A stretch of DNA of 64,000 bases from an uncultured delta proteobacterium (GTDB lineage Bacteria > Myxococcota_A > Polyangia > Palsa-1104). The stretch spans positions 160,001-224,000 of the forward strand of contig CAWAWS010000005.1 of assembly GCA_963785725.1 (NCBI GenBank), written 5' to 3'. Position 1 is the first letter of the stretch. The number at the start of each line of letters is the position of its first letter. The position numbers and the translations under genes were made by a program. Of the stretch, positions 990-15,801 are shown in pieces. The notes below the pieces were generated by a model. That model was not told where the DNA came from. It did no database searches and saw only the letters and a program-made list of their open reading frames with translations.

Positions 990-1691
990 TCAGCCGGGCG
1001 GCACGCAGCCGCCGGCGCCGTCGCACATCGTGCCGTTGCCGACGCTGCAGGGCGTGCCCGGCGCCGCCGGCGCGCTGCCGCACGTGTGCGCCGTCGGATC
1101 GCAGGCGCTGACGAGGCAGGGGTTCGACTGCGGCGGGCAGTTGCTGTCCATCAAGCAGCCGACGCAGGTGCCGCTGCCGTCGCAGACGGCGCCGTTGTCG
1201 TCGTCGCACTGGATGCCCGCGGGCGCGTCGACCACCATGCACATGAAGACCGTCGGGTTGCACAAGTTGGCCTGGCAGGCGGTGGTCGTGATGGGCGCGC
1301 AATCGGCCGGGCTGGCGCAGCCGAGGAAGCAAACGCCATGGCCGTCGCACACGTTGCCGCCGCTGTCGCTGCAGGGCGTGCCGGCGACGGCGTCGCTCAG
1401 GCCGCACATGCCGTTGGTCAGGCACGTGCTGCTCTGGCACGCGGTCGGCGGCGTCGGGCAGTCGCTCGGCACGTGGCACATGCCGCCGCCGTCGCCCGGG
1501 CTGGTCATGTCGAGCGGCGCGCCGGGACAGATCATGGCGCTGTCGATGCACGATCCGTTGCACGGCGATTGGCCGCTGAGACACGCGATCTCCGCCGGCG
1601 TCGAGCAGCCGCCGAGCCCGAGGCCGACCGCGGCTGCGACCACGACGCCGACGACCGCGCGCGCGATCATCAACCGCATCGGCGACTGCAT
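990..1691 (-). CDS. Cysteine-rich secreted lipoprotein, myxobacterial type
   Basis: Hydrophobic signal ending LGGC; three repeats of C..CxP...C...G..C.D....CDG.G.C; start may be a downstream ATG. Confidence 0.75.
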   Translation of the reverse strand: MQSPMRLMIARAVVGVVVAAAVGLGLGGCSTPAEIACLSGQSPCNGSCIDSAMICPGAPLDMTSPGDGGGMCHVPSDCPTPPTACQSSTCLTNGMCGLSDAVAGTPCSDSGGNVCDGHGVCFLGCASPADCAPITTTACQANLCNPTVFMCMVVDAPAGIQCDDDNGAVCDGSGTCVGCLMDSNCPPQSNPCLVSACDPTAHTCGSAPAAPGTPCSVGNGTMCDGAGGCVPPG

Positions 1692-1956
1692 CGGCGTTCT
1701 TCCCCCGTCAATGGCTCGCGCAATCAGCGAACGGTCGCTCCCCGCTTCATCTTGTCATTCGCGTGATCGCCGAGCCAAGAGAAAAGTTCGGTCTTGGAAT
1801 GGGGCGTGATAAAGTGGCGCATCCCGGATGACTACGACACCTCTCGATTCGAGCGGTAGCGCGGCGCCGGGCGCGCGCGGCCTGCGCGGCGGACTGCGAG
1901 CCGCGTGGCGGTCGGATCAGGCGGCCGCGGCGTTCCGTTTCATTTCATGGGGGGAG

Positions 1957-2409
1957 ATGATGCGGCATTCGTTCCGAGCGGCGCTCGCAGTGGCAGCGGT
2001 CGCGGCGCTCTCGACGGGCGCGCGGGCCGAGCCGACGGCGATCGGCAAGGCCAAGATCGTGAACGGCAAGGTGACCATCATCCGCGGCGCCAACAAGCTC
2101 GCGGTGAAAGTGGCCGACGCCATCAACGAGCACGATGTCTTCGAGACCGGGCCCGACGGCAGCGTCGGCATCACCTTCACCGACAACACGTCGTTCTCGA
2201 TCGGGCCCAACAGCCGCGTCGCCATCGACACCTACTTCTTCGATCCCAAGAACTTGAAGGGCAACCTCTTGGCGCAGCTCAAGAAGGGGACGATGATGGT
2301 GCGCTCGGGCGAGCTGACGCGACAGCAGCCGGGCTCGGTGCAGGTCAAGACGCCACGAACCGTGCTCGGCGTGCGCGGCACGACCTTCGTCGTCTCTGTT
2401 GACGAATAG
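1957..2409 (+). CDS. Stand-alone secreted FecR-domain protein
   Basis: Signal peptide followed by the FecR core ETGPDGSVGITFTDNTSFSIGPNS...VKTPRTVLGVRGTTF. Confidence 0.85.
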   Translation: MMRHSFRAALAVAAVAALSTGARAEPTAIGKAKIVNGKVTIIRGANKLAVKVADAINEHDVFETGPDGSVGITFTDNTSFSIGPNSRVAIDTYFFDPKNLKGNLLAQLKKGTMMVRSGELTRQQPGSVQVKTPRTVLGVRGTTFVVSVDE

Positions 2410-2414
2410 GCCCT

Positions 2415-5093
2415 GTGCTTCGCGCGCCTCGGTTCGGCTGGCCTCTGTGCATCGGTCTCGGCCTCGCGTGCGCGGTCGCGCGGCTGCCGTCGGCCGGCGC
2501 GCAGTCGGCGGGCTATCAGCTCAACCGCTACGAGCCGACGCCGGCCGGTGATCCGTTTACGCTCGTCGAGTATCCCTGGTACTCGGCGACGCGCTGGTTC
2601 GCCGGCGGGCTGACGCTCGACTATGCGCACCAACTGCTCGTCGCGCACGGCGCGCCGGCGCCGATCGCCAATCAGCTCGACGGACACCTCGACCTCGCCG
2701 GCTCGCTGTTCGATCGCGTCGCCGTGACGCTGAGCGTGCCGATGGTGCTGTACGAAGGCGGCACCGCCTTCAACGGCATCGGGCCGACCGGCGCCGTCGC
2801 CGGCAATCCGCGGCTCGGCGTGCGCGCGCGCCTCGTCGGCCAGCCCGACTCGCGCGTCTCGCTGAGCGCCAGCGCCTATCTCTGGATCCCCGTTGGCGAG
2901 CAGCACAACTTGGCCGGCGACGCGGGCGTGCGCTTCATGCCGCGGCTCAGTCTCGGCGGGCTCATGCTCGCGCAGCTGCCGTGGCAGCTGCGCTGGGCGG
3001 TCAACGCCGCGTTCCTCTATCGCGGGACGGCGCGGGTGGCGACCAGCGTCTCGCCGGTCGGCAACACGGTCGGCTCCGAGCTGCAGCTCTCGGCCGGCCT
3101 CAGCTTCGTGGCGCTCGAGCGCCGCTTCAGCATCGGTCCCGAGGCGCTCTTGTCGATCGCAGTGGCCGGCGATCTGCCGAGCGGACAGCAGCTGGCGACG
3201 CTGGAGCTGCTCGGCGCCGCGCACTATCTGGTGGCCGACACGGTGCAGCTCGGGCTCGGCATCGGCGGCGGCGTGGCCGGTGCGCCCGGTCCGCCCGACC
3301 TCCGCTTCATCTTCTCGCTCGCCTATGCGCCGCTGCGCCGGCGGACCTCGACGTTCGAGCGGGTGGTCGTGCTGCCCGACGAAGACGGTCACGTGGGCGG
3401 CGTCGTCGTCGACGACGGCAAAGCGCGCACGGTGCTCGACCAGGCTTACGCCGCGACGGAGATCGGCAGAAAGGACAAGCGCGCGCGGGCGGTGCAGAGC
3501 TCGGCGCAGGCGCTGCCGCCGGGCGTGGCGGCGTTGGCGCGCGCGCTGCCGCCGTCCGATCGCGACGGCGACGGCATCGTCGACGCGCAGGACGCCTGCC
3601 CCGATCGCGCCGGCGTGGCCTCGGCCGATCCGATTCGCCACGGCTGCCCCAAAGCGTCGGAGAAGGTGGTCGTGCTGCCCGACGCCGATGGACACGTGGG
3701 CGGCGTCGAGGTCGATGACGGCCGGACGAAGACGCTCATCGATCGGCCTTACGCCGGCGTCGAGGTCGGCGCCGACGGCCACGCGCAGGCGGTGGCGCCG
3801 CCGCCGGCCAAAGCCGTGGCTCGCTCGGTCGCGGCCGTCGCCGGCGCGCTGCCGCCGCCCGATGCCGACGACGACGGCGTGCGCGACAACGAGGACGCCT
3901 GCCCCGACCGCGCCGGCGTCGCCTCCGACGATCCCTTGCGCAACGGCTGCCCGGCGGCGCTCGAGCGGATGGTGGTGCTGCCCGATCCCGATGGGCACGT
4001 CGGCGGCGTCGAGGTCGACGACGGCAAGCGGCGCACGCTCGTCGATCAGCCCTACGCCAGCGCCGAGGTCGGCGGCGATGGCCACGTGCGCGCCGTGCCG
4101 CCTTCGCTGCGGTCGGCGGTCGAGCGCTCGGTGGCGGCCATCGCGCGTACGCTGCCGGCCGCCGACGATGACGCCGACGGCATCGCCGACGCCGACGATG
4201 CCTGCCCGGGTCGCGCCGGCGTCGCCGCGCCCGACGCCCTGCGCAACGGCTGCCCGAGCGTGCGCGAGCGCGTCATCGTCCTGCCCGACGCCGACGGGCA
4301 CGTCGGCGGCGTCGAAGTCGACGATGGCCAGTCGAAGACCGTGCTCGATCGCGCCTACGCGACCGCCGAGGTCGGCGCCGACGGGCGCGCGCAGCTGGCG
4401 CCGACCTCGCCGGTGTACGCCGTGACGCGGTCGATCCGCGCCATCGCCACGACGATGCCGCCGCCCGACCGCGACGACGACGGCGTCGCCGATCAAGACG
4501 ACGCCTGCCCCGATCGCGCCGGCGCGCCCAGCGCCGACTCCCTCCGCAGCGGCTGCCCGCGCACCGTCGAGCAGGTGGTCGTATTGCCCGACGAAGACGG
4601 CCACGTCGGCGGCGTCGAGGTCGATGACGGCCACGGCAAGACGCTGCTCGCCGAGGCCTACGCCACGTCCGAGACCGGCAGCGACGGCCGCGCCCGCGGC
4701 TTGAAGACGCTGCCGGCCGAGGTGGCGAAGACCTTCGCGCAGGCGATGGCCGCGCAGCCGCCGGGCGCGCGCCTCATCATCTACTTCGACAAGCGCGCCG
4801 AGCCGGTGCGCGACTTGACCGGCCCCATCGCCAACGTCGTCGCCGAGGTCAAGGCGCGCGCCACCTATTCGATCGACGTCGTCGGCCACACCGACGAGCG
4901 CGGCTCGCGCGCCGCCAATCAGCGCATCGGCCTCGAGCGCGCGCAGCTCATCGCCGACCGCCTGATCGCGGCCGGCGTTCCCGTCGAGCGCGTGCACGTC
5001 ATCTCCAAGGGAATGACCGAGCCGTCGGTGTCGGTGAAGAAGAAGAGCGTCGCCGAATTCCGCAACCGCCGCGTCGAAGTCTTCGTTCGTTAG
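2415..5093 (+). CDS. OmpA-family outer membrane protein: N-terminal beta-barrel-like region, five tandem modules with TSP3-like Ca-binding motifs, C-terminal OmpA_C domain
   Basis: C-terminal GHTDERGSRAANQRIGLERA...RNRRVEVFVR; DxDxDGxxDxxDxCP motifs; repeated VVVLPDxDGHVGGVEVDDG. Confidence 0.9.
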   Translation: MLRAPRFGWPLCIGLGLACAVARLPSAGAQSAGYQLNRYEPTPAGDPFTLVEYPWYSATRWFAGGLTLDYAHQLLVAHGAPAPIANQLDGHLDLAGSLFDRVAVTLSVPMVLYEGGTAFNGIGPTGAVAGNPRLGVRARLVGQPDSRVSLSASAYLWIPVGEQHNLAGDAGVRFMPRLSLGGLMLAQLPWQLRWAVNAAFLYRGTARVATSVSPVGNTVGSELQLSAGLSFVALERRFSIGPEALLSIAVAGDLPSGQQLATLELLGAAHYLVADTVQLGLGIGGGVAGAPGPPDLRFIFSLAYAPLRRRTSTFERVVVLPDEDGHVGGVVVDDGKARTVLDQAYAATEIGRKDKRARAVQSSAQALPPGVAALARALPPSDRDGDGIVDAQDACPDRAGVASADPIRHGCPKASEKVVVLPDADGHVGGVEVDDGRTKTLIDRPYAGVEVGADGHAQAVAPPPAKAVARSVAAVAGALPPPDADDDGVRDNEDACPDRAGVASDDPLRNGCPAALERMVVLPDPDGHVGGVEVDDGKRRTLVDQPYASAEVGGDGHVRAVPPSLRSAVERSVAAIARTLPAADDDADGIADADDACPGRAGVAAPDALRNGCPSVRERVIVLPDADGHVGGVEVDDGQSKTVLDRAYATAEVGADGRAQLAPTSPVYAVTRSIRAIATTMPPPDRDDDGVADQDDACPDRAGAPSADSLRSGCPRTVEQVVVLPDEDGHVGGVEVDDGHGKTLLAEAYATSETGSDGRARGLKTLPAEVAKTFAQAMAAQPPGARLIIYFDKRAEPVRDLTGPIANVVAEVKARATYSIDVVGHTDERGSRAANQRIGLERAQLIADRLIAAGVPVERVHVISKGMTEPSVSVKKKSVAEFRNRRVEVFVR
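3363..4760 (+). repeat. Intragenic tandem repeat, 303-bp (101-aa) period, 4 full copies plus 1 partial
   Basis: The VVVLPD module starts at 3363, 3666, 3969, 4272 and 4575, exactly 303 bp apart. Confidence 0.95.
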
Positions 5094-5097
5094 CGCC

Positions 5098-6504
5098 TTA
5101 GTGGTCGGAGCCGCCTTGCAGCTCGGACAGCCGCGCGTCGTGCTCGAGGAAGCGGTCGGCGAGCGCCTTGACGAACTGCCCCAAGAACGAGCTGCGCACC
5201 AGCTCCTCCAGCGCGTGACGCTCGACGACGACGGCGCTGACCTCGTCGATGGCGATGACGCTGGCCGAGCGCGGCGCGTCGGCGAAGATGGCCGTCTCGC
5301 CGAACACCTGCCCCGCTTCCAGCGTTCGCACCGTCACCGTGCGCGTCGGATCGGCGGCGTCGCGCTTGCGCACCTCGCAGCGGCCGCCGGTGATGATGAA
5401 GGCGGCGCGCGCCGGCTCGCCCTCGGCCACGATCACCTCGCCCGCGTGGAACTTCTGCATCGCGAACCAGTTGCCGCCGCGCAAGAACGCGCGCAGCTCT
5501 TCGGCCAGCTCCTCGACCGTTTGATGACGCTTGTTCGGGTCGGCCTCCATCGCCTTCATGGCGATGCGGCTCAGCTTCGGCGGCGGCTTGATGGCGACGC
5601 CGGTGCTCTCCTCGGGCGGCTTGAGCTGCCGGCGCTGCGCCAGCGGCAGCGCCTCCGGCACCGGGCCCGGATAAGGCGGCGAGCCGGTCAACATCTTGTA
5701 GAGGATGCCGCCGATCGCGAACACGTCGGTGCGCTGATCGATCTGCTGGATGTGACCCCAGGCCTGCTCGGGCGCCATGTACTGCACGGTGCCGATGACG
5801 GTGCCTTCGGGATCGGCGCGGCGCGGAATCTGCGAGCGGTGGCCGGCGCACACGTGCGCGCAGCCCCAGTCCATGACGTAGACCTGACCGAAGCCGCCGA
5901 CCATGATGTTGTCGGGCTTCAAGTCGCGATGAATGATGCCGCGGCTGTGCGCGAAGGCCATGGCGTCGCAGACCTTGACCAGGATCTCGAGCAGCCGCTC
6001 GAGGTCGCGCTGCGTCTTCTGCGCGGCGATGAGGCGCGTCAGCGTCTCGCCGTCGACCAGCTTCATCGTGAAGTAGCTGGGCACGCCGCGCGCGTCGAGC
6101 ACCAGCTCGTGCACGGGGACGATGTTGGGGTGGTCGAGCTGCCCGGTGATGCGCGCCTCGTCGAGAAAGCGCTCTTTGGAGTCCGGCTGCGCCGCCAGCT
6201 CGTTGTCGAGCACCTTCATGGCGATGTGGCGCAAGAGCTCGGTGTCGTAGAGGCGGCGAATCGAGCCCATGCCGCCGCGCGCGATCTCGCCCTCGTCGCG
6301 CAGGCGATCTTTGCCGCGCAAGGACGGCGGCGCCGCGGCCGGCGTCGGCGGCGGACCGGCGCCCTCGGCGCGCTCCGACTCCCAGGTGTCCACCGAGCCT
6401 TCGAACCAGGGGACATCGCTGGCCTCGTCGTCGACGGCGGAGCTGGGCTTGGCGCGCTGCAGACGGCCGACGGCGGTGACCGGATCATCGTGGCTCATAG
6501 ACAC
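5098..6504 (-). CDS. Hanks-type Ser/Thr protein kinase with C-terminal cyclic nucleotide-binding domain
   Basis: IARGGMG, IAMK, HRDLKPDN, DWG and GTVQYMAPE kinase motifs; C-terminal GEVIVAEGE...GQVFGETAIFADAPRSASV cNMP cassette. Confidence 0.92.
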   Translation of the reverse strand: MSMSHDDPVTAVGRLQRAKPSSAVDDEASDVPWFEGSVDTWESERAEGAGPPPTPAAAPPSLRGKDRLRDEGEIARGGMGSIRRLYDTELLRHIAMKVLDNELAAQPDSKERFLDEARITGQLDHPNIVPVHELVLDARGVPSYFTMKLVDGETLTRLIAAQKTQRDLERLLEILVKVCDAMAFAHSRGIIHRDLKPDNIMVGGFGQVYVMDWGCAHVCAGHRSQIPRRADPEGTVIGTVQYMAPEQAWGHIQQIDQRTDVFAIGGILYKMLTGSPPYPGPVPEALPLAQRRQLKPPEESTGVAIKPPPKLSRIAMKAMEADPNKRHQTVEELAEELRAFLRGGNWFAMQKFHAGEVIVAEGEPARAAFIITGGRCEVRKRDAADPTRTVTVRTLEAGQVFGETAIFADAPRSASVIAIDEVSAVVVERHALEELVRSSFLGQFVKALADRFLEHDARLSELQGGSDH

Positions 6505-6628
6505 TCCCGGTCGTCATCATACCCTCGCCGCGATTGACAGGTCCATAGCGCCGCTTCTACGATGAGAACGCCGTCGGCATCGGCCGGGAGTCATTCGTGC
6601 GTCTGGGGACGAGAGCGTTCGAGCGCTG

Positions 6629-9082
6629 ATGGGCAACCGCCGCGTCTGGCTCGTGCAACTGCCGCTGGTGCTGGTGTGGACGCTGGCGTTCACGATCGCG
6701 CAGCGCGGCGACGAGCGGACGCTGACGAGCCCGCTGCTGCGCGATCGCGTCTATCGGACGCTGCGCATGATGGAGGGCTTCGCCACCGACCTGAAGTTTC
6801 GCCTGCGCGGGCCGCGGCCGCTGACGCCCAAGATCGTGATGGTCGAGATCGACGAAGACGCCATCAACCAAGTCGGCCGCTGGCCCTGGCACCGCGACGC
6901 GATGGCGGTCCTCATTCAGTCGGCGTTCGACGCCGGCGCGCGCGTCGTCGGGCTCGACATCGTCTTCTCCGAGCCCGACGTGCGCGTGCCCGAAGCGGTC
7001 GGTGAGCTCTTGCGCGGGCACGGCCTCGGCGACCAGATCCCGGCGTTCGAGACCGATCTGACGTTACAGCGCATCATCGCGCTCCATCGCGATCGGCTCG
7101 TGCTCGGCTGGATGAGCGACGACGCCTGCGTGCCCGCCTGGGAACATTGCGATCCGATGCTGGCGCTGCCCAAAGGCTTCGAGAAGTTCGCCTACGGCCA
7201 CCTGAGCGGCACGTTTCGTCAGGACGGGACGGCGCTCGTGACCGTCCCCACCATCACCGCCAACATCGACGGCTTCGACGAGGCGGCCGCGCACTCGGGC
7301 TACTTCCAAGGCTGGCCCGATCCCGACGACGTGACGCGCCGGACCTTCTTGGCCGTCACCGCGAACGGGCACCTCTTTCCGTCGCTGCCTCTCGAGATGG
7401 CGCGCGTCGGCCTCGACGACGAGCTCGGCGCCGACCTCGACGGCCGCGGCGAGATCGCCAGCCTCTCGCTCTTGCGCGCGGGGCGGCGCCTGCCGGTCTC
7501 GAAGCACGGCGTCCTGCCGATCAACTTCCTCGGGCCCGGCTATCAAGAAGGCGCGTTTCCGTGGGTGCCGGCGATGCAGCTCATCGGCGACGCCGAGCGC
7601 ATCCAGTTCGTGCGCAAGCACAAGGTGGAGTCGGTGGCGCGCTCGGCGCTGTTTCAGGACGCCTACGTCTTCATCGGCTTGTCGGCGCAGGGTGTGAACG
7701 ATCTGCGTAACTTTCCCTTCGCCTCGCACGGGCCCGGCGTCGAAGGCCACGCGACGGTCTTGGAGAACATCCTGTCGCAGCAGTTCCTGCGCACCGGCGC
7801 CGGGCTCTGCGATGGACGGCTGGTGCTGGCGCTGATGACGCTGGGCGCGCTCCTGTTCGGCTGGGCGATGGTGCGGCTGGCGGCGCTGCCGGCGCTCTTG
7901 CTGTCGGTCGCGGTCATCGGTGCGCTGGCGGTCGTGGACGTGGCGCTGTTCAGCCGGCGCAACATCGATCTCGACTCCGTCTTCCTCTTCGGCGAGCTGA
8001 CGACGCTCTTCGTGGCGACGCTGGCGGTGAAGTACGTCCAAGAGGAGCGCGGCAAGCAGCTCATCCGCGGCACCTTCTCGAAGTACCTCGCGCCCGCCGT
8101 CGTCGACGAGATGCTCAAGGACCCGGGCAACGTCAAGCTGGGCGGCGAGACGCGCAAGCTGACCATCATGATGTCCGATCTGCGCGGCTTCACCGCCACC
8201 GCCGAGCGCCTGCGGCCGGAACAGGTGCTGGGCCTGCTCAACAATTACTTGGGGACGATGGCGGACATCATCGTCGACCATCAAGGCACGATCGACGAGT
8301 TCATCGGCGACGCCATCCTCGTCATCTTCGGTGCGCCGCTGGCGCGCGCCGACGACGCGCGCCGCGCCGTGGCCTGCGCGGTGGCGATGCAGCGGGCGAT
8401 GAAGGGCATCAACGAGCACAACGCGCGGCTCGGGCTGCCGGCGATCGAGATGGGCGTCGCGCTCAACACCGGCGAGGTCATCGTCGGCAACATCGGCTCG
8501 CAGCAGCACATCAAGTACGGCGTCGTCGGCAGCCACGTGAACCTGACGGCGCGCATCGAGTCCAACACCGTCGGCGGGCAGGTGCTGATCTCGGGCACGA
8601 CGCTGGCGTTGGCGGGCGCCGACCTCGTGCTCGGCGACCAGCAGCTGATCGTCGCCAAGGGCTTTCCGCAGCCGATTCCGGCGTTCGAGGTCCGTGGCAT
8701 CGGCGGCGAGTACGACCTCATGCTCGACGAGGTGGACCTGGCGCTGGTGACGCTCGAACGCCCGCTCGACGTGCGCTACCGGCTCGTCATGAGCAAGAAC
8801 GAGGAAGGGCCGGAAGCGGTCGGACAGCTGCGCGCGCTGTCCGCCAAGGGCGCCGTGCTCGCCGGCGACGGCGCGCTCGACGCCTTCGCCAACCTCAAGC
8901 TCACGATGGTGGCGCCCACCGGTGTCGCCATCGAGGGCGCGCTCTACGCCAAAGTCGTCGCCGGCGGCGCGGCGTGCACGCTGCGCTTCACGGCGGTGCC
9001 GCCGGAGGTCGAGCGCTTCGTCGCGCAGCAGCTCGAGCCGGCGACGCCCGAGCGTTCGAGCGAGCTGGCCGGACGCTCCTGA
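6629..9082 (+). CDS. CHASE2-domain membrane class III nucleotidyl cyclase, probably guanylyl (Cya2-like), with C-terminal PilZ-like beta domain
   Basis: CHASE2 motifs (IDEDAINQVGRWPWHR, GLDIVFSE, PGVEGHA), TM helices, catalytic motifs SDLRGFT, IDEFIGDA, KYGVVGSHVNLTARIE. Confidence 0.9.
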   Translation: MGNRRVWLVQLPLVLVWTLAFTIAQRGDERTLTSPLLRDRVYRTLRMMEGFATDLKFRLRGPRPLTPKIVMVEIDEDAINQVGRWPWHRDAMAVLIQSAFDAGARVVGLDIVFSEPDVRVPEAVGELLRGHGLGDQIPAFETDLTLQRIIALHRDRLVLGWMSDDACVPAWEHCDPMLALPKGFEKFAYGHLSGTFRQDGTALVTVPTITANIDGFDEAAAHSGYFQGWPDPDDVTRRTFLAVTANGHLFPSLPLEMARVGLDDELGADLDGRGEIASLSLLRAGRRLPVSKHGVLPINFLGPGYQEGAFPWVPAMQLIGDAERIQFVRKHKVESVARSALFQDAYVFIGLSAQGVNDLRNFPFASHGPGVEGHATVLENILSQQFLRTGAGLCDGRLVLALMTLGALLFGWAMVRLAALPALLLSVAVIGALAVVDVALFSRRNIDLDSVFLFGELTTLFVATLAVKYVQEERGKQLIRGTFSKYLAPAVVDEMLKDPGNVKLGGETRKLTIMMSDLRGFTATAERLRPEQVLGLLNNYLGTMADIIVDHQGTIDEFIGDAILVIFGAPLARADDARRAVACAVAMQRAMKGINEHNARLGLPAIEMGVALNTGEVIVGNIGSQQHIKYGVVGSHVNLTARIESNTVGGQVLISGTTLALAGADLVLGDQQLIVAKGFPQPIPAFEVRGIGGEYDLMLDEVDLALVTLERPLDVRYRLVMSKNEEGPEAVGQLRALSAKGAVLAGDGALDAFANLKLTMVAPTGVAIEGALYAKVVAGGAACTLRFTAVPPEVERFVAQQLEPATPERSSELAGRS

Positions 9083-9101
9083 GCTCCGCGCGCGCCGCCG
9101 C

Positions 9102-9975
9102 TCAGCGGCGAACGAAGCGGCCGAGCGACGGCTGCCACACCTCGACGGCGCCCTCGACGGCGATGGCGACGTTGGCGCAGCCGGCGGCGTGACGCGCGAA
9201 CGCGTCTTCGATGAGCCGATCCGACTGCAGCGGACCGTGATGGCCGGCGAGCACGCGCGTCTGCGGATGGCGCCGCGCCAGCTCGGCCGCGTACTCGATC
9301 GAATCCGTGCCCGAAGGTGTGCTGCGCGACGTCGCTGTGGTTGGCGTCGACGATGACGAGCTGCGCGGTCGCGACCACGGCGTCCTCCAGCGCGCGCGTC
9401 GCCGCCGTCGGCTCGTGATCACTCAGGTAGGCGACGGTCGGGCCGTCGGTGACGGCCAGCCGATAGCCGAGCGTGTCGAGGTAGCGCCGGTTGGGCTCGA
9501 GGCCGCTGTAGTGGTGGAGCGCCACGGTCTCGAGCGTCGCGCCCGGCAACGCCACGCTCGCGCCGGCCGCGAGCGCGACGAACGACAGGCGTCGCAGCGT
9601 GCCCAGCGCCAGCACCTCGAGCGGGACGAACGCCGGCGGCGCGTGCCCGGCGGCAATCGTGTCGAGCGCCTCTTGCGGGCCGAGCACCGTCAACTCGAGG
9701 CCGTTGTCGCGGCGCCACATCCACTCGGCGTCCTTGAGCCCTTCCCAATGATCGAGGTGCGCGTGCGTAACGAGCACGTGCAGTCGCTCGATCGCGCGCA
9801 GGCGCTCGTCGCCGGCGAGCGCGGCGGCGAGCGCGCCCAGGCCGCGACCGGCGTCGAAGACGAAGAGGTCGGCGCCGACCGCCAGCGAGTAGCACGACGT
9901 CGCGTTGCCGATCCGCGAATGCCACGTGTTGCGGCCGCCGCGACAACCCCAAATGTGCAGCTGCGTCTCGTTCAC
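9102..9975 (-). CDS. MBL-fold metallo-hydrolase (candidate cNMP phosphodiesterase); one apparent +1 frameshift near 9302
   Basis: WGCRGG, TSCY, FDAGRG, THAHLDH and YLSDHE motifs. Removing one base in minus-strand GGATTCGATC joins ...HTFGHG to SIEYAAELARRH...GHHGP. Confidence 0.8.
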
Positions 9976-9998
9976 GATGGCGGGCGTGGCCAACGCGC

Positions 9999-10982
9999 TC
10001 AGGCCCAGCCGAGCCGGTTGCGACCGGCGCGCTTGGCGGCGTAAAGGGCTTCGTCGGCGCGCTTCAGGAGCTCGGCGGCGCTCTCGCCGGCGCGGTATTG
10101 CGTGCCGCCCATCGTGGTCGTGATGCGGATGCCGCGGTCGTTGCCGGGATGGGGAAAGCTGCCGATGGCGGCGCGCAGCGTCTCGGCGCGGGTGCGCGCC
10201 TCCGCTTCGTCGAGGTCGGCGAGCAAGAGGATGAACTCGTCGCCGCCGACGCGGCACGGCAAATCGGACTTGCGCACGCCGTCCTGCAAGATGGCGCCGA
10301 CGGCTTTGAGCACGAAGTCGCCGGCGGCGTGACCGAGCGTGTCGTTGACGGGCTTGAAGTGGTCGAGGTCCATCGCGATGAGGACGAGCCCGCCGCCGAT
10401 GGCCCGCGCGCGCTCCATGAAGCCGTGCACCTCGGCGTCGAAGCAGCGGCGGTTGAAGAGGCCGGTGAGCGCGTCGGTGCGCGCCGTCTCCTCCTCTTGC
10501 GTCAGCCGCTTGCGCGTGAACTCGAGGCTCTTGATGGTGTCCTGCAGCTCGACGTTGCGCCGCCGCAGATCGGCGATCAAGTTGCGCTCGGCGTCGACCA
10601 AGAAGGCGCAGGCGCGGCGCAAGAGCGTGAAGATGGCACGCGGATGGGTCGCCAGCAGCGACTGAATGCTCGACTGGTCGACGACCTGCAGGCGCGCCGC
10701 GCTCGTGGCGACGATCGAAATGCTGCGCTGGTGGCCGGGGTTGATGAACGAGAGCTCGCCGAAGTAGCTGCCGGGGCTGTACGTGCGCACGACCTTGCCG
10801 GTGTCGAGGACGGCCTCGGCCTCGCCGGCGACGAGGAAGAACATCGAATCGCCGGGCTCGCCTTGCGTCAGGATGCGCTCGCCGGCCGCGCAGTGGCGCA
10901 GCGCGCCCGCCGCGAAGATGGCGTCGACCTCGTCATCGGTGAAGGCGTGCAACGGGGAATCGGCCGGGAATGCACTACGCAC
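9999..10982 (-). CDS. Diguanylate cyclase with N-terminal cNMP-binding domain (cNMP - coiled coil - GGDEF)
   Basis: QGEPGDSMF...SYFGELSF...QRS cNMP motifs; TDALTGLFNRR, DLDHFKPVNDTLGHAAGD, RKSD I-site, GGDEF. Start is GTG 10982 (TAAAAT 7 nt upstream) or ATG 11021. Confidence 0.92.
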   Translation of the reverse strand: MRSAFPADSPLHAFTDDEVDAIFAAGALRHCAAGERILTQGEPGDSMFFLVAGEAEAVLDTGKVVRTYSPGSYFGELSFINPGHQRSISIVATSAARLQVVDQSSIQSLLATHPRAIFTLLRRACAFLVDAERNLIADLRRRNVELQDTIKSLEFTRKRLTQEEETARTDALTGLFNRRCFDAEVHGFMERARAIGGGLVLIAMDLDHFKPVNDTLGHAAGDFVLKAVGAILQDGVRKSDLPCRVGGDEFILLLADLDEAEARTRAETLRAAIGSFPHPGNDRGIRITTTMGGTQYRAGESAAELLKRADEALYAAKRAGRNRLGWA

Positions 10983-11117: not shown

Positions 11118-11543
11118 ATGGCAGCACTCGGTGAAGTCGGTTCCGTCACGAGCGTGCACTTTCGCGTCAGCACCGCCAATCAGGCCGCTTTCCGCGCGCT
11201 CAGCGGTGACGACAACCCGCTCCATTTCGACGACGCCTTCGCCCGAGCGCGCGGCTTTGCCGGCCCGGTCGTCTATGGTGGGCTCATCGTCGCCGCCATC
11301 TCGCGCCTGCTCGGCAACGAGGTCCCCGGCGCCGGCTGCGTCTGGCACTCGCTCAAGCTCGACTTTCGCGCGCCGCTCTACGTCGACGAGCCGGCCACCG
11401 TGCAGGCGACCTTGACGCACTTTACCGAGGCGCTCGGGCTGTGGCGCCTCGGCCTCGACGTCGCCGTCCCCGGCCGGCGCATCGCCAAGGGCGAGGCCTC
11501 GGCGATGCTGCGCGACACCACCACCCGCGCCACCGCCGAATGA
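11118..11543 (+). CDS. MaoC-like hotdog dehydratase
   Basis: FRALSGDDNPLHFDDAFA...GPVVYGGL hydratase-2 motif. Confidence 0.88.
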   Translation: MAALGEVGSVTSVHFRVSTANQAAFRALSGDDNPLHFDDAFARARGFAGPVVYGGLIVAAISRLLGNEVPGAGCVWHSLKLDFRAPLYVDEPATVQATLTHFTEALGLWRLGLDVAVPGRRIAKGEASAMLRDTTTRATAE

Positions 11544-12202
11544 AAGCGGTCCTCGTCACCGGCGCCGGCGGCGCCATCGGCTCGGCCATCGCCAGCCTAG
11601 CGCGCGCGCGCGGCTGGGCCGTCATCGCCGCGCAGCGCGATCGAGCGGCGACGCTGCAGCTGCCGCTCGACGAGCCCGACCGCTTCGCCGACGTCTTGGC
11701 CACCGTCGATGCGTCGTTGGATGTGGCGGCGCTGGTGCTGTGCGCGTCGCCGCCGCCGCTGGTGTCGTCGTTCACGAAGACGCCGAGCGACGCGCTCGTG
11801 CAGCAGCTCCAAATCAATGTCGTCGCCGCGCATCGCCTGCTGGCCGAGTGCTGGAAGCGCTTTTTCCGGCCGCGCAAAGGCGGCCACGTCGTCGCCTTCT
11901 CGACGGCGGCGCTGGGTCCGCCGCCGACGCCGCACCTGGTCTCGTACTTGGTCGGCAAGGCGGCGGTCGAGGCGCTGGTCGAGGCGGCGCTCGCCGAGCT
12001 CGGCCCGGCCGGGCTGCGCGGCACGGTCATTCGTCCCGGGTTCACCGAGACGCCGATGCTGCGCGCATTTCCGACGCCCATCCTCGACGCCGCGCGCCAG
12101 TCGACGCGCTTTCTGACGCCGGCCGAGGTCGCGGCGGCCACCGTCGACGCGCTCGACCAACCGCCGGCCGAGCCGCTCCTGCGTAGGATTGAGCTGCCAT
12201 GA
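11540..12202 (+). CDS. SDR family oxidoreductase (ketoreductase-like)
   Basis: VTGAGGAIG, YxxxK (YLVGK), PGFTETPM; ATGA overlap with the MaoC gene. Confidence 0.88.
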   Translation: MKAVLVTGAGGAIGSAIASLARARGWAVIAAQRDRAATLQLPLDEPDRFADVLATVDASLDVAALVLCASPPPLVSSFTKTPSDALVQQLQINVVAAHRLLAECWKRFFRPRKGGHVVAFSTAALGPPPTPHLVSYLVGKAAVEALVEAALAELGPAGLRGTVIRPGFTETPMLRAFPTPILDAARQSTRFLTPAEVAAATVDALDQPPAEPLLRRIELP

Positions 12203-14073
12203 AGTGGTTACCCGCGCTCCCCAGCCACGACGCCTTCGCCGAGCTCCGCGCGCACACCAATCCGACGACGCGCCTGGCCGCCATCGTTCGCCTCGCCCAC
12301 TTCGATCTCGATTTTCTGCAGACGGCCAAGCTCGATCGCCTGCTGGAAAAGACCGTGCGCGAGCTCGATGGGCCGGCGCCGCTGCCGAATCTGACGCGCG
12401 TGCGGCTGGCCTGGCTGGCCTCCTCCACCGTCGAGCAGCTGCTGCCGGGCGCGCGCATCGCCGGCTTGCGTCGCGGGCTGTATCTCGACATCCATTTGGC
12501 GCCTTACGGCCAATATCAGCAGGCGCTGCTCGCGGACGAAGGCGCGCTCGTCGACTTTCAGCCCGAGGCGGTGTTCATCCAGCTCGCGCCCGAGGACGCG
12601 CTGCCCGAGCTGCCGCTGGCCGCCACCGCCGCCGAGGCCGCCACCGCCGTCGCCGAGCGCGTGGCCGAGCTGACGCAGCTGTGGTCGCGCGCGCGCGAGC
12701 GCCATCGCGCGCTCGTCATCCACGCCACCGTGCCCAACTTGGCCGAGCGCCTCTTCGGCTCGTACGAGCTGCAGATTCCCGGCGCGCGCTCGAGCCTCAT
12801 CGCGCGCCTCAACCGCGCGCTCGTCGACGCGGCGCCGGCGGCCGGCGCGATCGTGTGCGACCTCGACGGCTGGTTCGCGCGCCTCGGCCACGACGCGTTC
12901 GACCCGGTGCGCTGGTTCCAGGCCAAGCAGCTGGTCGCGCCCGCGCTCGGTCCCTTGTTCGGCGAAGAGCTGGCGCGTCTCGTCGCCGCCGCGCGCGGCC
13001 GCTCACGCAAGGCGCTCGTCCTCGATCTCGACAACACGCTGTGGGGCGGCGTGGTCGGCGATGATGGCGTCGACGGCTTGATCCTCGGTCAAGGCGACGC
13101 CGCCGGCGAAGCGTTCGTCGCCTTCCAGCGCTACGTCAAGCAGCTGGCGACGCGCGGCATCGTGCTCGCCGTCTGCTCCAAGAACAACGCCGACACGGCG
13201 TTGGCGCCCTTTGCCCTCCATCGCGAGATGGTCCTGTCGCGCGACGACATCGCCGTCTTCGTCGCCAACTGGACCGACAAGGCGACCAACCTGCGCACCA
13301 TCGCGGCCACGCTCAACCTCGGGCTCGACGCGCTCGTCTTCGTCGACGACAACCCGGTCGAGCGCGATCAGGTGCGGCGCGAGCTGCCCGAGGTCGCGGT
13401 GCCGGAGATGCCCGAGGATCCGGCCTATTTCGTGCGCACGCTCGCCGCCGCCGGCTACTTCGAGACCGTCGCCTTCTCCGCCGAGGATTGGCAGCGCAGC
13501 GAGCAATATCAGACCAACGCCAAGCGCCAGCGACTGCAAGAAGGCAGCTCCGACATGGACGGCTTTCTGCAGAGCCTGGGCATGACGATGGTGACGTCGC
13601 CGGTCGGCGGCAACAACCTGACGCGCGTCGTCCAGCTCATCAACAAGACCAACCAGTTCAACCTGACGACGCGCCGCTACACCGAGGCCGAGGTCGAGGC
13701 CGTCGCCGGCTCGCCCGACCACATCGCGCGCTGCTTTCGCCTGCGCGATCGCTTCGGCGACAACGGCATCATCTCGGTCGTCATCGCGGCGCGCGAGCAC
13801 GACGCCTGGAACATCGAGACCTGGCTCATGAGCTGCCGCGTCCTCGGCCGTAAAGTCGAGCAGGCGGTGCTGGCCGAGCTGGCGCGCGCGGTGCAATCGC
13901 ACGGCGGCCGCGCGCTCGTCGGCCGCTACCTGCCGACAGCCAAGAACGGGCTCGTCGCCAATCACTACCGAGACTTGGGCTTCCAAAAGGCTGACGCGAC
14001 CGATCAGCGCTGGACGCTCGACCTCGACACCTTCGTCCCCGCCCTCCTACCCATCGAGCTCATCCATGACTGA
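12199..14073 (+). CDS. FkbH-like HAD-IIIC glyceryl transferase/phosphatase
   Basis: LDLDNTLWGGVVGDDG, CSKN, FVDDNPVER, QLINKTNQFNLTT and MSCRVLGR motifs. Confidence 0.93.
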   Translation: MKWLPALPSHDAFAELRAHTNPTTRLAAIVRLAHFDLDFLQTAKLDRLLEKTVRELDGPAPLPNLTRVRLAWLASSTVEQLLPGARIAGLRRGLYLDIHLAPYGQYQQALLADEGALVDFQPEAVFIQLAPEDALPELPLAATAAEAATAVAERVAELTQLWSRARERHRALVIHATVPNLAERLFGSYELQIPGARSSLIARLNRALVDAAPAAGAIVCDLDGWFARLGHDAFDPVRWFQAKQLVAPALGPLFGEELARLVAAARGRSRKALVLDLDNTLWGGVVGDDGVDGLILGQGDAAGEAFVAFQRYVKQLATRGIVLAVCSKNNADTALAPFALHREMVLSRDDIAVFVANWTDKATNLRTIAATLNLGLDALVFVDDNPVERDQVRRELPEVAVPEMPEDPAYFVRTLAAAGYFETVAFSAEDWQRSEQYQTNAKRQRLQEGSSDMDGFLQSLGMTMVTSPVGGNNLTRVVQLINKTNQFNLTTRRYTEAEVEAVAGSPDHIARCFRLRDRFGDNGIISVVIAAREHDAWNIETWLMSCRVLGRKVEQAVLAELARAVQSHGGRALVGRYLPTAKNGLVANHYRDLGFQKADATDQRWTLDLDTFVPALLPIELIHD

Positions 14074-14308
14074 ACCCGAGATTTACGCGGTTTTACAGAC
14101 GCTCTTCCACGACATCTTCGACGACGAGTCGATCACGCTCACGCCCACGACCAGCGCCAAAGACATCGCCGAGTGGGACTCGTTCAACCACGTCAACATC
14201 ATCGTCGGCGCCGAGACCAAGTTCAAAATCAAGTTCACCACGTCGGAGATCGGCGGCCTCAAGAACGTGGGTGACTTCGTGCACCTCATCGCCCGAAAAA
14301 CCGCGTAG
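14066..14308 (+). CDS. Acyl carrier protein
   Basis: 80 aa, DIAEWDSFNHVN phosphopantetheine Ser motif; overlaps the FkbH gene. Confidence 0.92.
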   Translation: MTEPEIYAVLQTLFHDIFDDESITLTPTTSAKDIAEWDSFNHVNIIVGAETKFKIKFTTSEIGGLKNVGDFVHLIARKTA

Positions 14309-15801
14309 TGCTCTTCAATTCCTACACCTTCCTGTTCCTGTTTCTGCCGATCACGCTGGCGTTGGTGCTGGGCGCGAGCGCGCTCGGCTTGCGGCGCACG
14401 GCCAAAGTGTCGCTGCTCGTGGCGTCGCTGTTCTTCTACGGCTGGGCCAACCCGCGCTACCTGATCGTGCTCGGCGCGCTCGTCGCCTTCAACTACGGCA
14501 TCTGCCGCCTGCTCATGGCCGACGCCGGCGACGACGGCCGCCGCAAGGCCGTCTTCATCCTCGGCGTCGTCGCCAACGTCGCCACGCTGGCCTACTTCAA
14601 GTACACCAACTTCACCGTCACCACCGTCGACGAGCTCTTCGGCTGGCAGCTGCGGGTGGCGCGCATCGCGCTGCCGCTCGGCCTGTCGTTCATCACGTTC
14701 CAGAAGATCGCGCTCTTGGTCGACGTCTACGATCGCAGCGTCACGTCGTTCGGGCTGCTCGACTACTGCCTGTTCGTGACGTTCTTCCCGCAGCTCATCG
14801 CCGGTCCCATCGTCCATCACCGCGAGGTCTTTCCGCAGCTCGCCGACCCGAAGACGCTGCATTACTCGGCCGACGGCTTCGCGGCCGGCATCGCGCTCTT
14901 TTGCATCGGCTTCTTCAAGAAGGCCATGCTCGCCGACAGCGTCGCGAGCTTGGCCGGCCGCGTCTTCGACGGCGCCGCGCACGGCCAGCACCAAGGCGCG
15001 CCGATGCTCTGGCTCGGCGCCGTCGCCTACACGCTGCAGCTCTATTTCGACTTCTCGGGCTACTGCGACATGGCCATCGGGCTCGGCCGGCTGTTCGGCA
15101 TCCGCCTGCCCATCAACTTCGACTCGCCCTTCAAGGCCACCAACATCATCGACTTCTGGCGTCGCTGGCACATGACGCTGACGCGCTTTTTGACCGCCTG
15201 CATCTACAACCCGATCTTGCTCGCCATCAATCGCCGTCGCGCCGCCCAAGGTCTGTCGAGCGGCCGCCGCGGCATGACGCTGCCGGCGTTTACGCAGCTC
15301 GTGGTCCTGCCGACGATGGTGACGATGTGCATCGCCGGCATTTGGCACGGCGCCGGCTTCCAGTTCGCCGTCTTCGGCGCGCTGCACGGCCTGTACCTCG
15401 TGTGCAACCACGCCTGGCGCACGTTCGGCAAGAAGCGCAAAGCCTCGCCTCGCTTCGACATCCCCAAGACCGCCGGCACCTTCCTGCTCGTGGTCGTGGC
15501 GTTCGTCTTCTTCCGCGCCGACTCGGTGCACACGGCGCTGCGCATGCTCGGCGAGATGACCGGGCTGCACGGTCCCAACCCGCGCCCGCAGCTGACGTCG
15601 ATCGCCGGCACGGTGGTGCTGGCGGCGATCGCCTTCGCCGCGCCCAACTCCAACCGCGTCGTCGACGGCGCGGCCGGCGAGGCGAGCCGCTGGTGGGACT
15701 TCCGCCCGTCGCTGGCGTGGGGCTTGTGCATCGGCGCCATCGCGCTGGCGGCGATGCTGCAGCTCGACGCCTCCACCGAGTTTCTCTACTTCAATTTTTG
15801 A
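14308..15801 (+). CDS. MBOAT family O-acyltransferase (AlgI/DltB-like)
   Basis: MLFNSYTFLFLFLP, LPLGLSFITFQ, FFPQLIAGPI, YFDFSGY, FWRRWHMTL and GIWHGAG motifs. Confidence 0.95.
   Translation: MLFNSYTFLFLFLPITLALVLGASALGLRRTAKVSLLVASLFFYGWANPRYLIVLGALVAFNYGICRLLMADAGDDGRRKAVFILGVVANVATLAYFKYTNFTVTTVDELFGWQLRVARIALPLGLSFITFQKIALLVDVYDRSVTSFGLLDYCLFVTFFPQLIAGPIVHHREVFPQLADPKTLHYSADGFAAGIALFCIGFFKKAMLADSVASLAGRVFDGAAHGQHQGAPMLWLGAVAYTLQLYFDFSGYCDMAIGLGRLFGIRLPINFDSPFKATNIIDFWRRWHMTLTRFLTACIYNPILLAINRRRAAQGLSSGRRGMTLPAFTQLVVLPTMVTMCIAGIWHGAGFQFAVFGALHGLYLVCNHAWRTFGKKRKASPRFDIPKTAGTFLLVVVAFVFFRADSVHTALRMLGEMTGLHGPNPRPQLTSIAGTVVLAAIAFAAPNSNRVVDGAAGEASRWWDFRPSLAWGLCIGAIALAAMLQLDASTEFLYFNF

Follow-up and report, generated by a model that had tools for sequence, protein, structure and literature searches.

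Can six neighbouring genes supply a bacterium with an entire cyclic GMP (cGMP) pathway, from a sensor in the envelope to the removal of the messenger? The question is raised by a locus of an uncultured delta proteobacterium (Polyangia; Palsa-1104), at positions 1957-10982 of the 64,000-nt stretch of DNA analysed here (the window: contig CAWAWS010000005.1 of assembly GCA_963785725.1, positions 160,001 to 224,000), in which an earlier note made from the sequence alone had proposed a self-contained cGMP signalling island. To our knowledge, very few cases of bacterial cGMP signalling have been studied, one of them reportedly the cyst pathway of Rhodospirillum centenum. On balance, we think that the answer is yes: the conserved six-gene island probably forms a complete pathway comprising an envelope sensor, a maker of cGMP, two readers and a breaker, a reading that is supported by comparative genomics and whose individual biochemical steps we infer.

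The genes were chosen by analysis of third-position G+C content (GC3) in the reading frames of a region with ~70% G+C, followed by Pfam confirmation. The features of the island are given below, with cNMP standing for cyclic nucleotide monophosphate, MBL for metallo-β-lactamase and DGC for diguanylate cyclase:

1957-2409, plus strand: secreted FecR-domain protein, 150 amino acids (aa) (Pfam FecR PF04773, E 9.5e-12)

2415-5093, plus strand: OmpA-family outer-membrane protein, 892 aa (Pfam PF00691, 2e-10; TSP_3, 5.3e-6)

3540-4693, plus strand: tandem repeat array within the OmpA gene, period 303 nt (101 aa; Tandem Repeats Finder)

5098-6504, minus strand: Ser/Thr kinase with a cNMP_binding domain, 468 aa (Pfam Pkinase, 8.6e-38; cNMP_binding, 4.8e-18)

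6629-9082, plus strand: cyclase with CHASE2 and Guanylate_cyc domains, 817 aa (Pfam, 2.7e-44 and 6.1e-22)

8699-9079, plus strand: PilZ-fold C-terminal domain of the cyclase, residues 691-817 (Pfam matches of homologues, AlphaFold model, Foldseek)

9102-9976, minus strand: MBL-fold hydrolase, about 290 aa (Pfam Lactamase_B_2, 1.1e-12), with a 1-nt insertion at 9302/9303

9999-10982, minus strand: DGC with cNMP_binding and GGDEF domains, 327 aa from a GTG at 10982 (Pfam, 9e-16 and 4.5e-41)

All six architectures named in the earlier note are thus present by Pfam and GC3, and the kinase and cyclase genes do diverge, across a spacer of 124 bp. The kinase gene converges on the OmpA gene and the MBL gene on the cyclase gene; the OmpA gene starts 5 bp past the FecR stop, and 22 bp separate the cNMP-GGDEF gene from the MBL gene, which follows it on the same strand.

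In the pathway that we propose, an envelope signal would be passed by the secreted FecR protein and the OmpA-family protein to the CHASE2 domain of the cyclase, which would then produce cGMP. The nucleotide would be read twice, by the C-terminal cNMP domain of the Ser/Thr kinase, leading to protein phosphorylation, and by the cNMP-GGDEF enzyme, a protein like XC_0249 of Xanthomonas campestris, leading to cyclic di-GMP (c-di-GMP) synthesis. The MBL hydrolase, which would be co-transcribed with the DGC, would finally remove the cGMP.

The cyclase and its predicted product

The cyclase begins with an extracytoplasmic CHASE2 domain (residues 45-402), which is followed by transmembrane segments. 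The closest solved relative of its catalytic domain is Cya2 of Synechocystis (PDB 2W01; E 2.2e-62 over 182 residues), and the motifs SDLRGFT, IGDA and VNLTARIE, which align with Cya2, keep the class III metal-binding Asp pair together with the transition-state Asn/Arg. Adenylyl cyclases carry Lys and Asp/Thr at the two substrate-defining positions. At the first of these the window's enzyme has Glu, its GTIDEFIGD aligning with GTIDEFMGD of Cya2, and at the second it has Gly, within a KYGVVG that is identical in the two proteins; in 6FHT, an adenylyl form obtained by engineering, Lys replaces the Glu. Among the cyclases found beside the MBL family, the Glu is invariant (25 of 25); Gly occupies the second site in 22 and gives way to Ala in the remaining 3. 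Since it holds the Glu/Gly pair of Cya2, the enzyme is predicted to make cGMP, and the description of it as guanylyl-type holds at the level of sequence. Cya2 itself is a CHASE2-regulated guanylate cyclase that the change E488K converts into an adenylyl cyclase (PMC5995499), and its preference for GTP is set by turnover, not by affinity (PMC4284465).

The two candidate readers

In the DGC, an N-terminal cNMP domain precedes the GGDEF domain, in which RVGGDEF is intact and an RxxD site (RKSD) lies five residues upstream. Its cNMP domain aligns to 5H5O_A (E 6.5e-12), whose residues follow XC_0249 numbering at an offset of 22, and the cNMP domains of Plasmodium PKG are also among its best solved matches. 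XC_0249 contacts cGMP through F73, E90, L91, H98, V142, N145 and E146, the last of which makes two hydrogen bonds to guanine N1/N2; it binds the nucleotide at 0.29 uM, and cGMP stimulates its DGC activity (PMC3770947). Four of the six alignable contacts are kept in the island's DGC (E90, L91, H98 and E146), V142 is replaced by Leu, and F73 falls outside the alignment. The stretches FGELSxINPGH.RS and FLVDAERNLI are invariant in 10 DGC orthologues. The protein is predicted to be a cGMP-activated DGC.

The kinase carries its Pkinase domain at residues 71-330 and a single, C-terminal cNMP_binding domain at residues 350-438. Its translation holds HRDLKPDN, DWG and APE, the catalytic motifs of an active Hanks kinase, and the domain matches bacterial Hanks-type models such as PknB and PknD (NCBIfam). 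All 120 of the 120 relatives listed carry both Pkinase and cNMP_binding, under names that are generic only. We predict that this kinase is cGMP-regulated. In the congeneric genome G002 (L027, about 12419), the kinase-cNMP orthologue changes frame between its domains: tblastn returns two pieces in different frames, and a genome search reports one internal TGA.

The MBL-fold protein and its tie to the cyclase

The architecture of the hydrolase is present by Pfam, but its frame is interrupted in this assembly: one extra base (AA at 9302-9303, plus strand) splits the gene over two frames. The orthologues in G002 and in a second genome of the genus, G004, have a single base at that site and an intact frame, and a single A is likewise found in two short public contigs (from soil and root runs of two studies, 98-99% identical to the window), which are what the check in public runs rests on. 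Because these congeners and near-identical contigs lack the extra base, the insertion is most likely an indel of the assembly. Contig C39 of this genome carries a distant MBL paralogue whose coding sequence is likewise broken across frames, consistent with an assembly prone to such errors. Among the public sequencing runs, none holds more than 12% of the stretch's words, and no RNA run is among those listed.

The fold and a complete HxHxDH/His/Asp/His metal site are both present by alignment and model. The metal ligands H82, H84, D86, H87, H166, D197 and H234 are invariant in the family alignment, H256/H257 are nearly so, and the family has invariant motifs of its own (WGCRGG, HxHxDHWEG, HHYSG, DHEP, FGHGS and HHGP). 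A model of the G004 orthologue (mean predicted local distance difference test, pLDDT, 89.7) belongs by its fold to the MBL superfamily's phosphodiesterase branch; among its neighbours are YhfI of Bacillus subtilis (6KNS, TM-score 0.77 on target), yeast PDE1 (4OJV), phage Apyc1 (7U2S, 7U2R), RNase Z and PhnP. Apyc1, YhfI and PDE1 are MBL-fold class II phosphodiesterases, of which YhfI prefers cAMP/cGMP (PMC9117128).

The family is rare. In a sample of 401 evenly chosen Myxococcota genomes, with five candidates scored per genome, it occurs in two, with the orthologous cyclase adjoining in both; a profile search of 1.84 billion representative proteins gives 27 cluster representatives at E<=1e-30. 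To follow its neighbourhood, we anchored a scan on the MBL gene (one genome per species; tblastn with the window's domains), which gave 37 family loci; three further loci, L067-L069, at 23-26% identity to the MBL query, were excluded from all counts as non-members. A Cya2-like catalytic domain (57-92% identity) lies within 10 kb of the MBL gene in 25 of the 37 loci, spread over three phyla: Myxococcota, Acidobacteriota and, by an actinomycete, a third. One locus outside these 25, L039, shows just a C-terminal piece of the cyclase, at the contig end.

The arrangement of the pair depends on the lineage. In Myxococcota, the cyclase gene converges on the MBL gene in 11 of 14 loci; nine of the 14 have a cNMP-GGDEF gene directly preceding the MBL gene in the same orientation, and one has it at another place in the locus. 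Of the 23 loci from the Acidobacteriota and the actinomycete, 13 have the cyclase gene directly behind the MBL gene in the same orientation, and one more has it 8.9 kb upstream. The cyclases of those 13 loci have HisKA-REC in place of CHASE2, and they keep the catalytic domain and usually the PilZ tail.

Four proteins of this acidobacterial type join the two partners in a single frame, as Lactamase_B_2, HisKA, REC and Guanylate_cyc: L057 (9830-12700, one frame of 957 codons that includes a PilZ-like part), P0267, P0273 and P0274 (878, 899 and 880 aa). The HisKA part of these fusions has no ATPase domain adjoining it. Beside the MBL-cyclase pair stand cNMP proteins of several kinds. L045 has both a cNMP-GGDEF protein and one with two cNMP domains, L047 a transporter-HEAT-cNMP protein, L057 a cNMP-T2SSE ATPase and L059 a kinase-cNMP protein. 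That these differ by lineage is as expected of a maker-breaker core with exchangeable readers. The pairwise identities of MBL and cyclase are correlated (r = 0.82; 25 loci, 300 pairs), a figure to which we give no weight because both would track the species tree anyway.

From this context mainly, we conclude that the MBL protein is probably a cGMP phosphodiesterase. The term "eraser" in the earlier note thus finds its footing in linkage to a Cya2-like cyclase (25 of 37 loci, three phyla) and in the four fusions, but not in a match to any curated cNMP phosphodiesterase family.

Conservation of the island

The earlier note had made its proposal depend on the co-occurrence of these genes in related genomes, and they do co-occur. 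All six lie within 10 kb in L031, L033, L034, L038 and L040 and on a metagenome contig (L074), in at least three gene orders and with differing orientations. Within the genus of the window's organism, G002 has all six genes and G004 five; G001 (93% complete) and G003 (99%) give no match to the cyclase, MBL, kinase-cNMP or cNMP-GGDEF queries. The linkage of the genes reaches well beyond synteny.

The envelope genes and the CHASE2 sensor

The reading frame of the FecR gene is open from 1828, and the start at 1957 fits the N-termini in an alignment of orthologues (65-88% identity). Its product has a Sec-type signal peptide, judged by eye, and is a predicted periplasmic partner of the CHASE2 sensor. 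Behind its signal peptide, the OmpA protein has a TraB-like N-terminal region and then thrombospondin-type-3 repeats, and it ends with the peptidoglycan-binding OmpA domain. Residues 94-420 give an NCBIfam TraB-like match (E 1.8e-20, under the family cut-off), TraB being an outer-membrane exchange protein of Myxococcus, and the 303-nt array comprises 3.8 copies with 74% matches.

Among the 37 MBL loci, FecR and OmpA matches are confined to those whose cyclase carries CHASE2; by tblastn, the 14 loci with HisKA-REC cyclases have no FecR or OmpA match. The envelope genes therefore follow the CHASE2 sensor and not the catalytic domain. In genome G021 (L029, 9403-13841), too, a FecR gene immediately precedes the gene of a CHASE2 cyclase, here a more distant one (52% identity), and a cNMP-domain protein is encoded ~0.6 kb downstream; no MBL, OmpA or kinase-cNMP match occurs in about 20 kb of that locus. 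In three Kofleriaceae/Haliangiales loci (L034:17114-19165, L040:16412-18268), a gene for a secreted cysteine-rich protein (EGF_3, TNFR_c6, DUF4215) stands between the FecR and kinase-cNMP genes; this protein is not in the window's island.

Weighing the pathway against its alternatives

A number of observations speak against the pathway as proposed, and they bear on the messenger, on the MBL protein and on the linkage of the genes in turn. As to the messenger, the cNMP domain of the kinase has an RSA phosphate-binding motif, which also occurs in cAMP binders, and no clear cGMP signature; the DGC has Ala at N145, the guanine O6 contact of XC_0249. The module may then be real and its messenger cAMP or a mixture of nucleotides, made by an adenylyl cyclase with an unusual pocket and read by cAMP sensors, an explanation that we consider unlikely but that fits these two readers and the names of the cyclase's orthologues in the database, all of which are "adenylate cyclase" or "adenylate/guanylate cyclase domain-containing protein". 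Moreover, two residues do not prove substrate choice: Cya2 turns over ATP too, its preference being one of turnover (PMC4284465). What inclines us towards cGMP is that Glu occupies the position of the adenylyl cyclases' Lys in the window and in all 25 linked cyclases, that the single E488K change suffices to confer adenylyl activity on Cya2 (PMC5995499), and that the DGC retains E146, the guanine N1/N2 contact.

As to the MBL protein, it has no PDEase_II match, the Pfam matches at E<=0.01 being Lactamase_B_2 and Lactamase_B only; NCBIfam gives weak RNase Z and PhnP matches and no cNMP phosphodiesterase family; and a sequence search of the PDB returned nothing under E 0.3. In the fold search, enzymes that are not cNMP phosphodiesterases, namely RNase Z, PhnP, PqqB and arylsulfatase, score much as the cNMP phosphodiesterases do, PqqB and arylsulfatase being outside the phosphodiesterases altogether. 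If the frameshift were a real, strain-specific loss, the strain would be left without its predicted eraser. Another possibility is that the protein is tied to the cyclase but does something else, whether cleaving c-di-GMP, pGpG, a 2',3'-cyclic phosphate or RNA or regulating the cyclase. A link to c-di-GMP would suit the Myxococcota, where the MBL gene lies directly behind the DGC gene, and one database protein, P0283, joins a GGDEF fragment to an MBL domain. Yet the MBL gene directly precedes the cyclase gene in the 13 loci of Acidobacteriota and the actinomycete, an XC_0249-like cNMP-GGDEF gene being nearby only in L045 (the GGDEF gene of L060 is unrelated), and the four full-length fusions join MBL to the cyclase, none to a GGDEF enzyme. 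Pairing a maker with a breaker would also be the usual logic of second messengers. We attach a low probability to these other activities and retain cGMP hydrolysis as the probable one.

As to linkage, 12 of the 37 MBL loci have no cyclase catalytic domain. Six of them (L035, L044, L051, L054, L055 and L056) have at least 2.6 kb of relevant flank and truly lack the cyclase; the other six have less than 1.1 kb on the relevant side. G004 has no cNMP-GGDEF gene, and G349 keeps the cyclase, FecR, OmpA and kinase genes with no MBL or cNMP-GGDEF gene within about 9 kb. Both readers named in the earlier note are present in the island, but the kinase is linked to it only among its closest orthologues: we screened 80 kinase-cNMP metagenome loci, and of the 16 with at least 5 kb on both sides, one (L074, the closest relative) holds the island and the other 15, at 42-52% identity, do not; a 1-kb contig among the 80 (L088) shows the end of an adjoining OmpA gene. 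With the more distant relatives (41-55% identity) off the island, the tie of kinase to cyclase belongs to one orthologous group and one acidobacterial case. Related genomes, finally, are kin, and our counts are not independent events.

The genes might then be neighbours by shared ancestry alone, through local synteny in one genus and with no joint function. The three directions of transcription in the window, which do not make one operon, and the absence of single components from some relatives would allow this, but we disfavour it as very improbable: the set persists through at least three gene orders, its presence and absence within the genus are block-wise, and the MBL-cyclase pair recurs in three phyla and has been fused four times. 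Most improbable of all is a Pycsar-like anti-phage system, in which a pyrimidine cyclase triggered by infection would act through cNMP effectors that kill or arrest the cell, suggested by the PADLOC matches of PycC to the cyclase domain (2.6e-21), of PycTIR/effector to the cNMP domain (2.3e-14) and of PD-T4-6 and mad6 to the kinase domain, since these matches are limited to shared domains, the catalytic domain is far nearer to Cya2 (2.2e-62), the cyclase is a Cya2-like receptor with an extracytoplasmic CHASE2 sensor and FecR and OmpA partners, the would-be effectors bear kinase and GGDEF domains and no membrane-disrupting or TIR domain, and the MBL, FecR and OmpA proteins have no PADLOC match; the defence reading was set aside on this account.

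The PilZ-fold tail of the cyclase

The architecture given to the cyclase in the earlier note, CHASE2 and a class III domain, is right as far as it goes, but a C-terminal PilZ-fold domain had gone unseen. The window's own tail has no Pfam PilZ match; of the 22 homologues aligned, 14 do match at E<=0.1, and the tail of the L059 homologue scores 25.3 bits, above the Pfam cut-off of 22.5. An AlphaFold model of the tail (pLDDT 82.2) has six strands and one helix, which is the PilZ fold, and in a Foldseek search against the PDB all of the ~40 top matches listed are PilZ domains or PilZ-containing proteins, the best being Alg44 (4RT0, E 2.8e-4) and others BcsA/CeSA, YcgR and MapZ.

PilZ domains that bind c-di-GMP do so with the motifs RxxxR and (D/N)xSxxG. 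None of the 22 aligned sequences has a conserved RxxxR before the first strand, and the second motif is reduced to xLSxxGA, without a conserved Asp or Asn. Canonical c-di-GMP binding by the tail therefore appears unlikely from these motifs. When the C-terminal domain of the cyclase served as query, the only matches were 25 close orthologues of the CHASE2 cyclase. Across the 401 Myxococcota genomes sampled, cyclases that combine catalytic and PilZ-like parts (39-53% identity) are widespread, and several CHASE2 cyclases, among them the window's (9040-9079) and its orthologues, end in a conserved ERSSELAGRS-type tail after the PilZ fold.

Comparison with known systems

In the open-access literature, we found no description of the six-gene cassette, no bacterial kinase-cNMP enzyme tied to a guanylyl cyclase and no MBL phosphodiesterase tied to Cya2-type cyclases. 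The claim that the complete cassette is uncharacterised stands to that extent, but one part of it does not, and this counts against its novelty: the pair of guanylyl cyclase and cNMP-GGDEF protein has already been characterised in Xanthomonas (PMC3770947). What is new is the fixed partnership of the MBL family with the cyclase, the linked kinase-cNMP reader and the PilZ tail, all within one conserved island. Set beside the systems that resemble it in part, the island compares as follows:

(i) As in the island, the genes for the guanylyl cyclase XC_0250 and the cNMP-GGDEF protein XC_0249 are linked in X. campestris. XC_0250 is a soluble protein that contains TPR repeats and has an atypical catalytic site, its Asn/Arg pair being replaced and Ala standing at the substrate position, whereas the island's cyclase is a membrane-bound CHASE2 receptor whose site is of the Cya2 type and which ends in a PilZ fold; the paper's account mentions no linked kinase-cNMP, MBL, FecR or OmpA gene (PMC3770947).

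(ii) Cya2 of Synechocystis sp. PCC 6803 shares with the island's cyclase CHASE2, a transmembrane region, a class III domain and the Glu/Gly pair. It also has a C-terminal extension, structurally uncharacterised according to PMC5995499, which may or may not equal the PilZ-fold tail. The sole cGMP phosphodiesterase reported from Synechocystis is Slr2100 and not a cya2-linked MBL gene.

(iii) YhfI, PDE1 and Apyc1 have the MBL fold and the HxHxDH metal site of the island's hydrolase, which differs from them in its own invariant motifs and in having no sequence-family match.

(iv) PKG combines a Ser/Thr kinase and cNMP binding in one polypeptide, and its N-terminal tandem cNMP domains autoinhibit a C-terminal AGC kinase domain. 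The island's kinase is likewise one polypeptide, but with a single C-terminal cNMP domain and a bacterial Hanks-type kinase domain; the likeness is one of analogy and not of membership, and the term "eukaryote-like" in the earlier note does not hold beyond that. PP2C phosphatases that carry cNMP domains have been recorded in myxobacteria (PMC2887360).

(v) Secreted FecR-domain proteins are encoded beside CHASE2 receptors elsewhere, as in the island: the Burkholderia "BiofilmReg" operon pairs a LysM-FecR protein with a CHASE2 histidine kinase (PMC5192318), and Sinorhizobium meliloti pairs the CHASE2 cyclase CyaD1 with the FecR-domain protein SMc02177 (PMC5498481). The island differs from these pairs in its Cya2-type output, in OmpA/TSP3 as a fixed third partner and in having no LysM. 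The ligands of CHASE2 receptors are described as unknown in PMC5192318.

Genes flanking the island

Upstream of the FecR gene, an open reading frame of 259 aa (1030-1809, plus strand) with good GC3 has no Pfam or NCBIfam match; it has 57% identity to a counterpart in G002 and weak similarity in G004. Beyond the other end of the island, a short-chain dehydrogenase, an FkbH-N/GDSL-like protein and an MBOAT acyltransferase are encoded on one strand (11441-15801, plus), a possible lipid or polysaccharide acylation cluster that is not kept beside the island in G002 or G004.

What the island may add to bacterial cGMP signalling

Tentatively, we would go further than the six-gene pathway: the MBL proteins may found an unrecognised family of cGMP phosphodiesterases that has accompanied, and repeatedly been fused to, Cya2-type cyclases in Myxococcota, Acidobacteriota and an actinomycete, a full pathway having been built around the pair in Polyangia, with OmpA-TSP3/FecR input on CHASE2, a PKG-like cGMP-dependent kinase and a cGMP-activated DGC. 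Within this more doubtful reading, the PilZ tail may serve for feedback on cGMP synthesis, by c-di-GMP or by a partner protein.

The island offers a candidate family of dedicated cGMP phosphodiesterases, defined by linkage and fusion to the cyclase, together with a candidate cGMP-regulated protein kinase and a candidate envelope input for a CHASE2 receptor. The MBL-cyclase fusions are natural single-chain constructs, and the proteins are of modest size. These candidate parts are mostly missing from the current picture of cGMP in bacteria.

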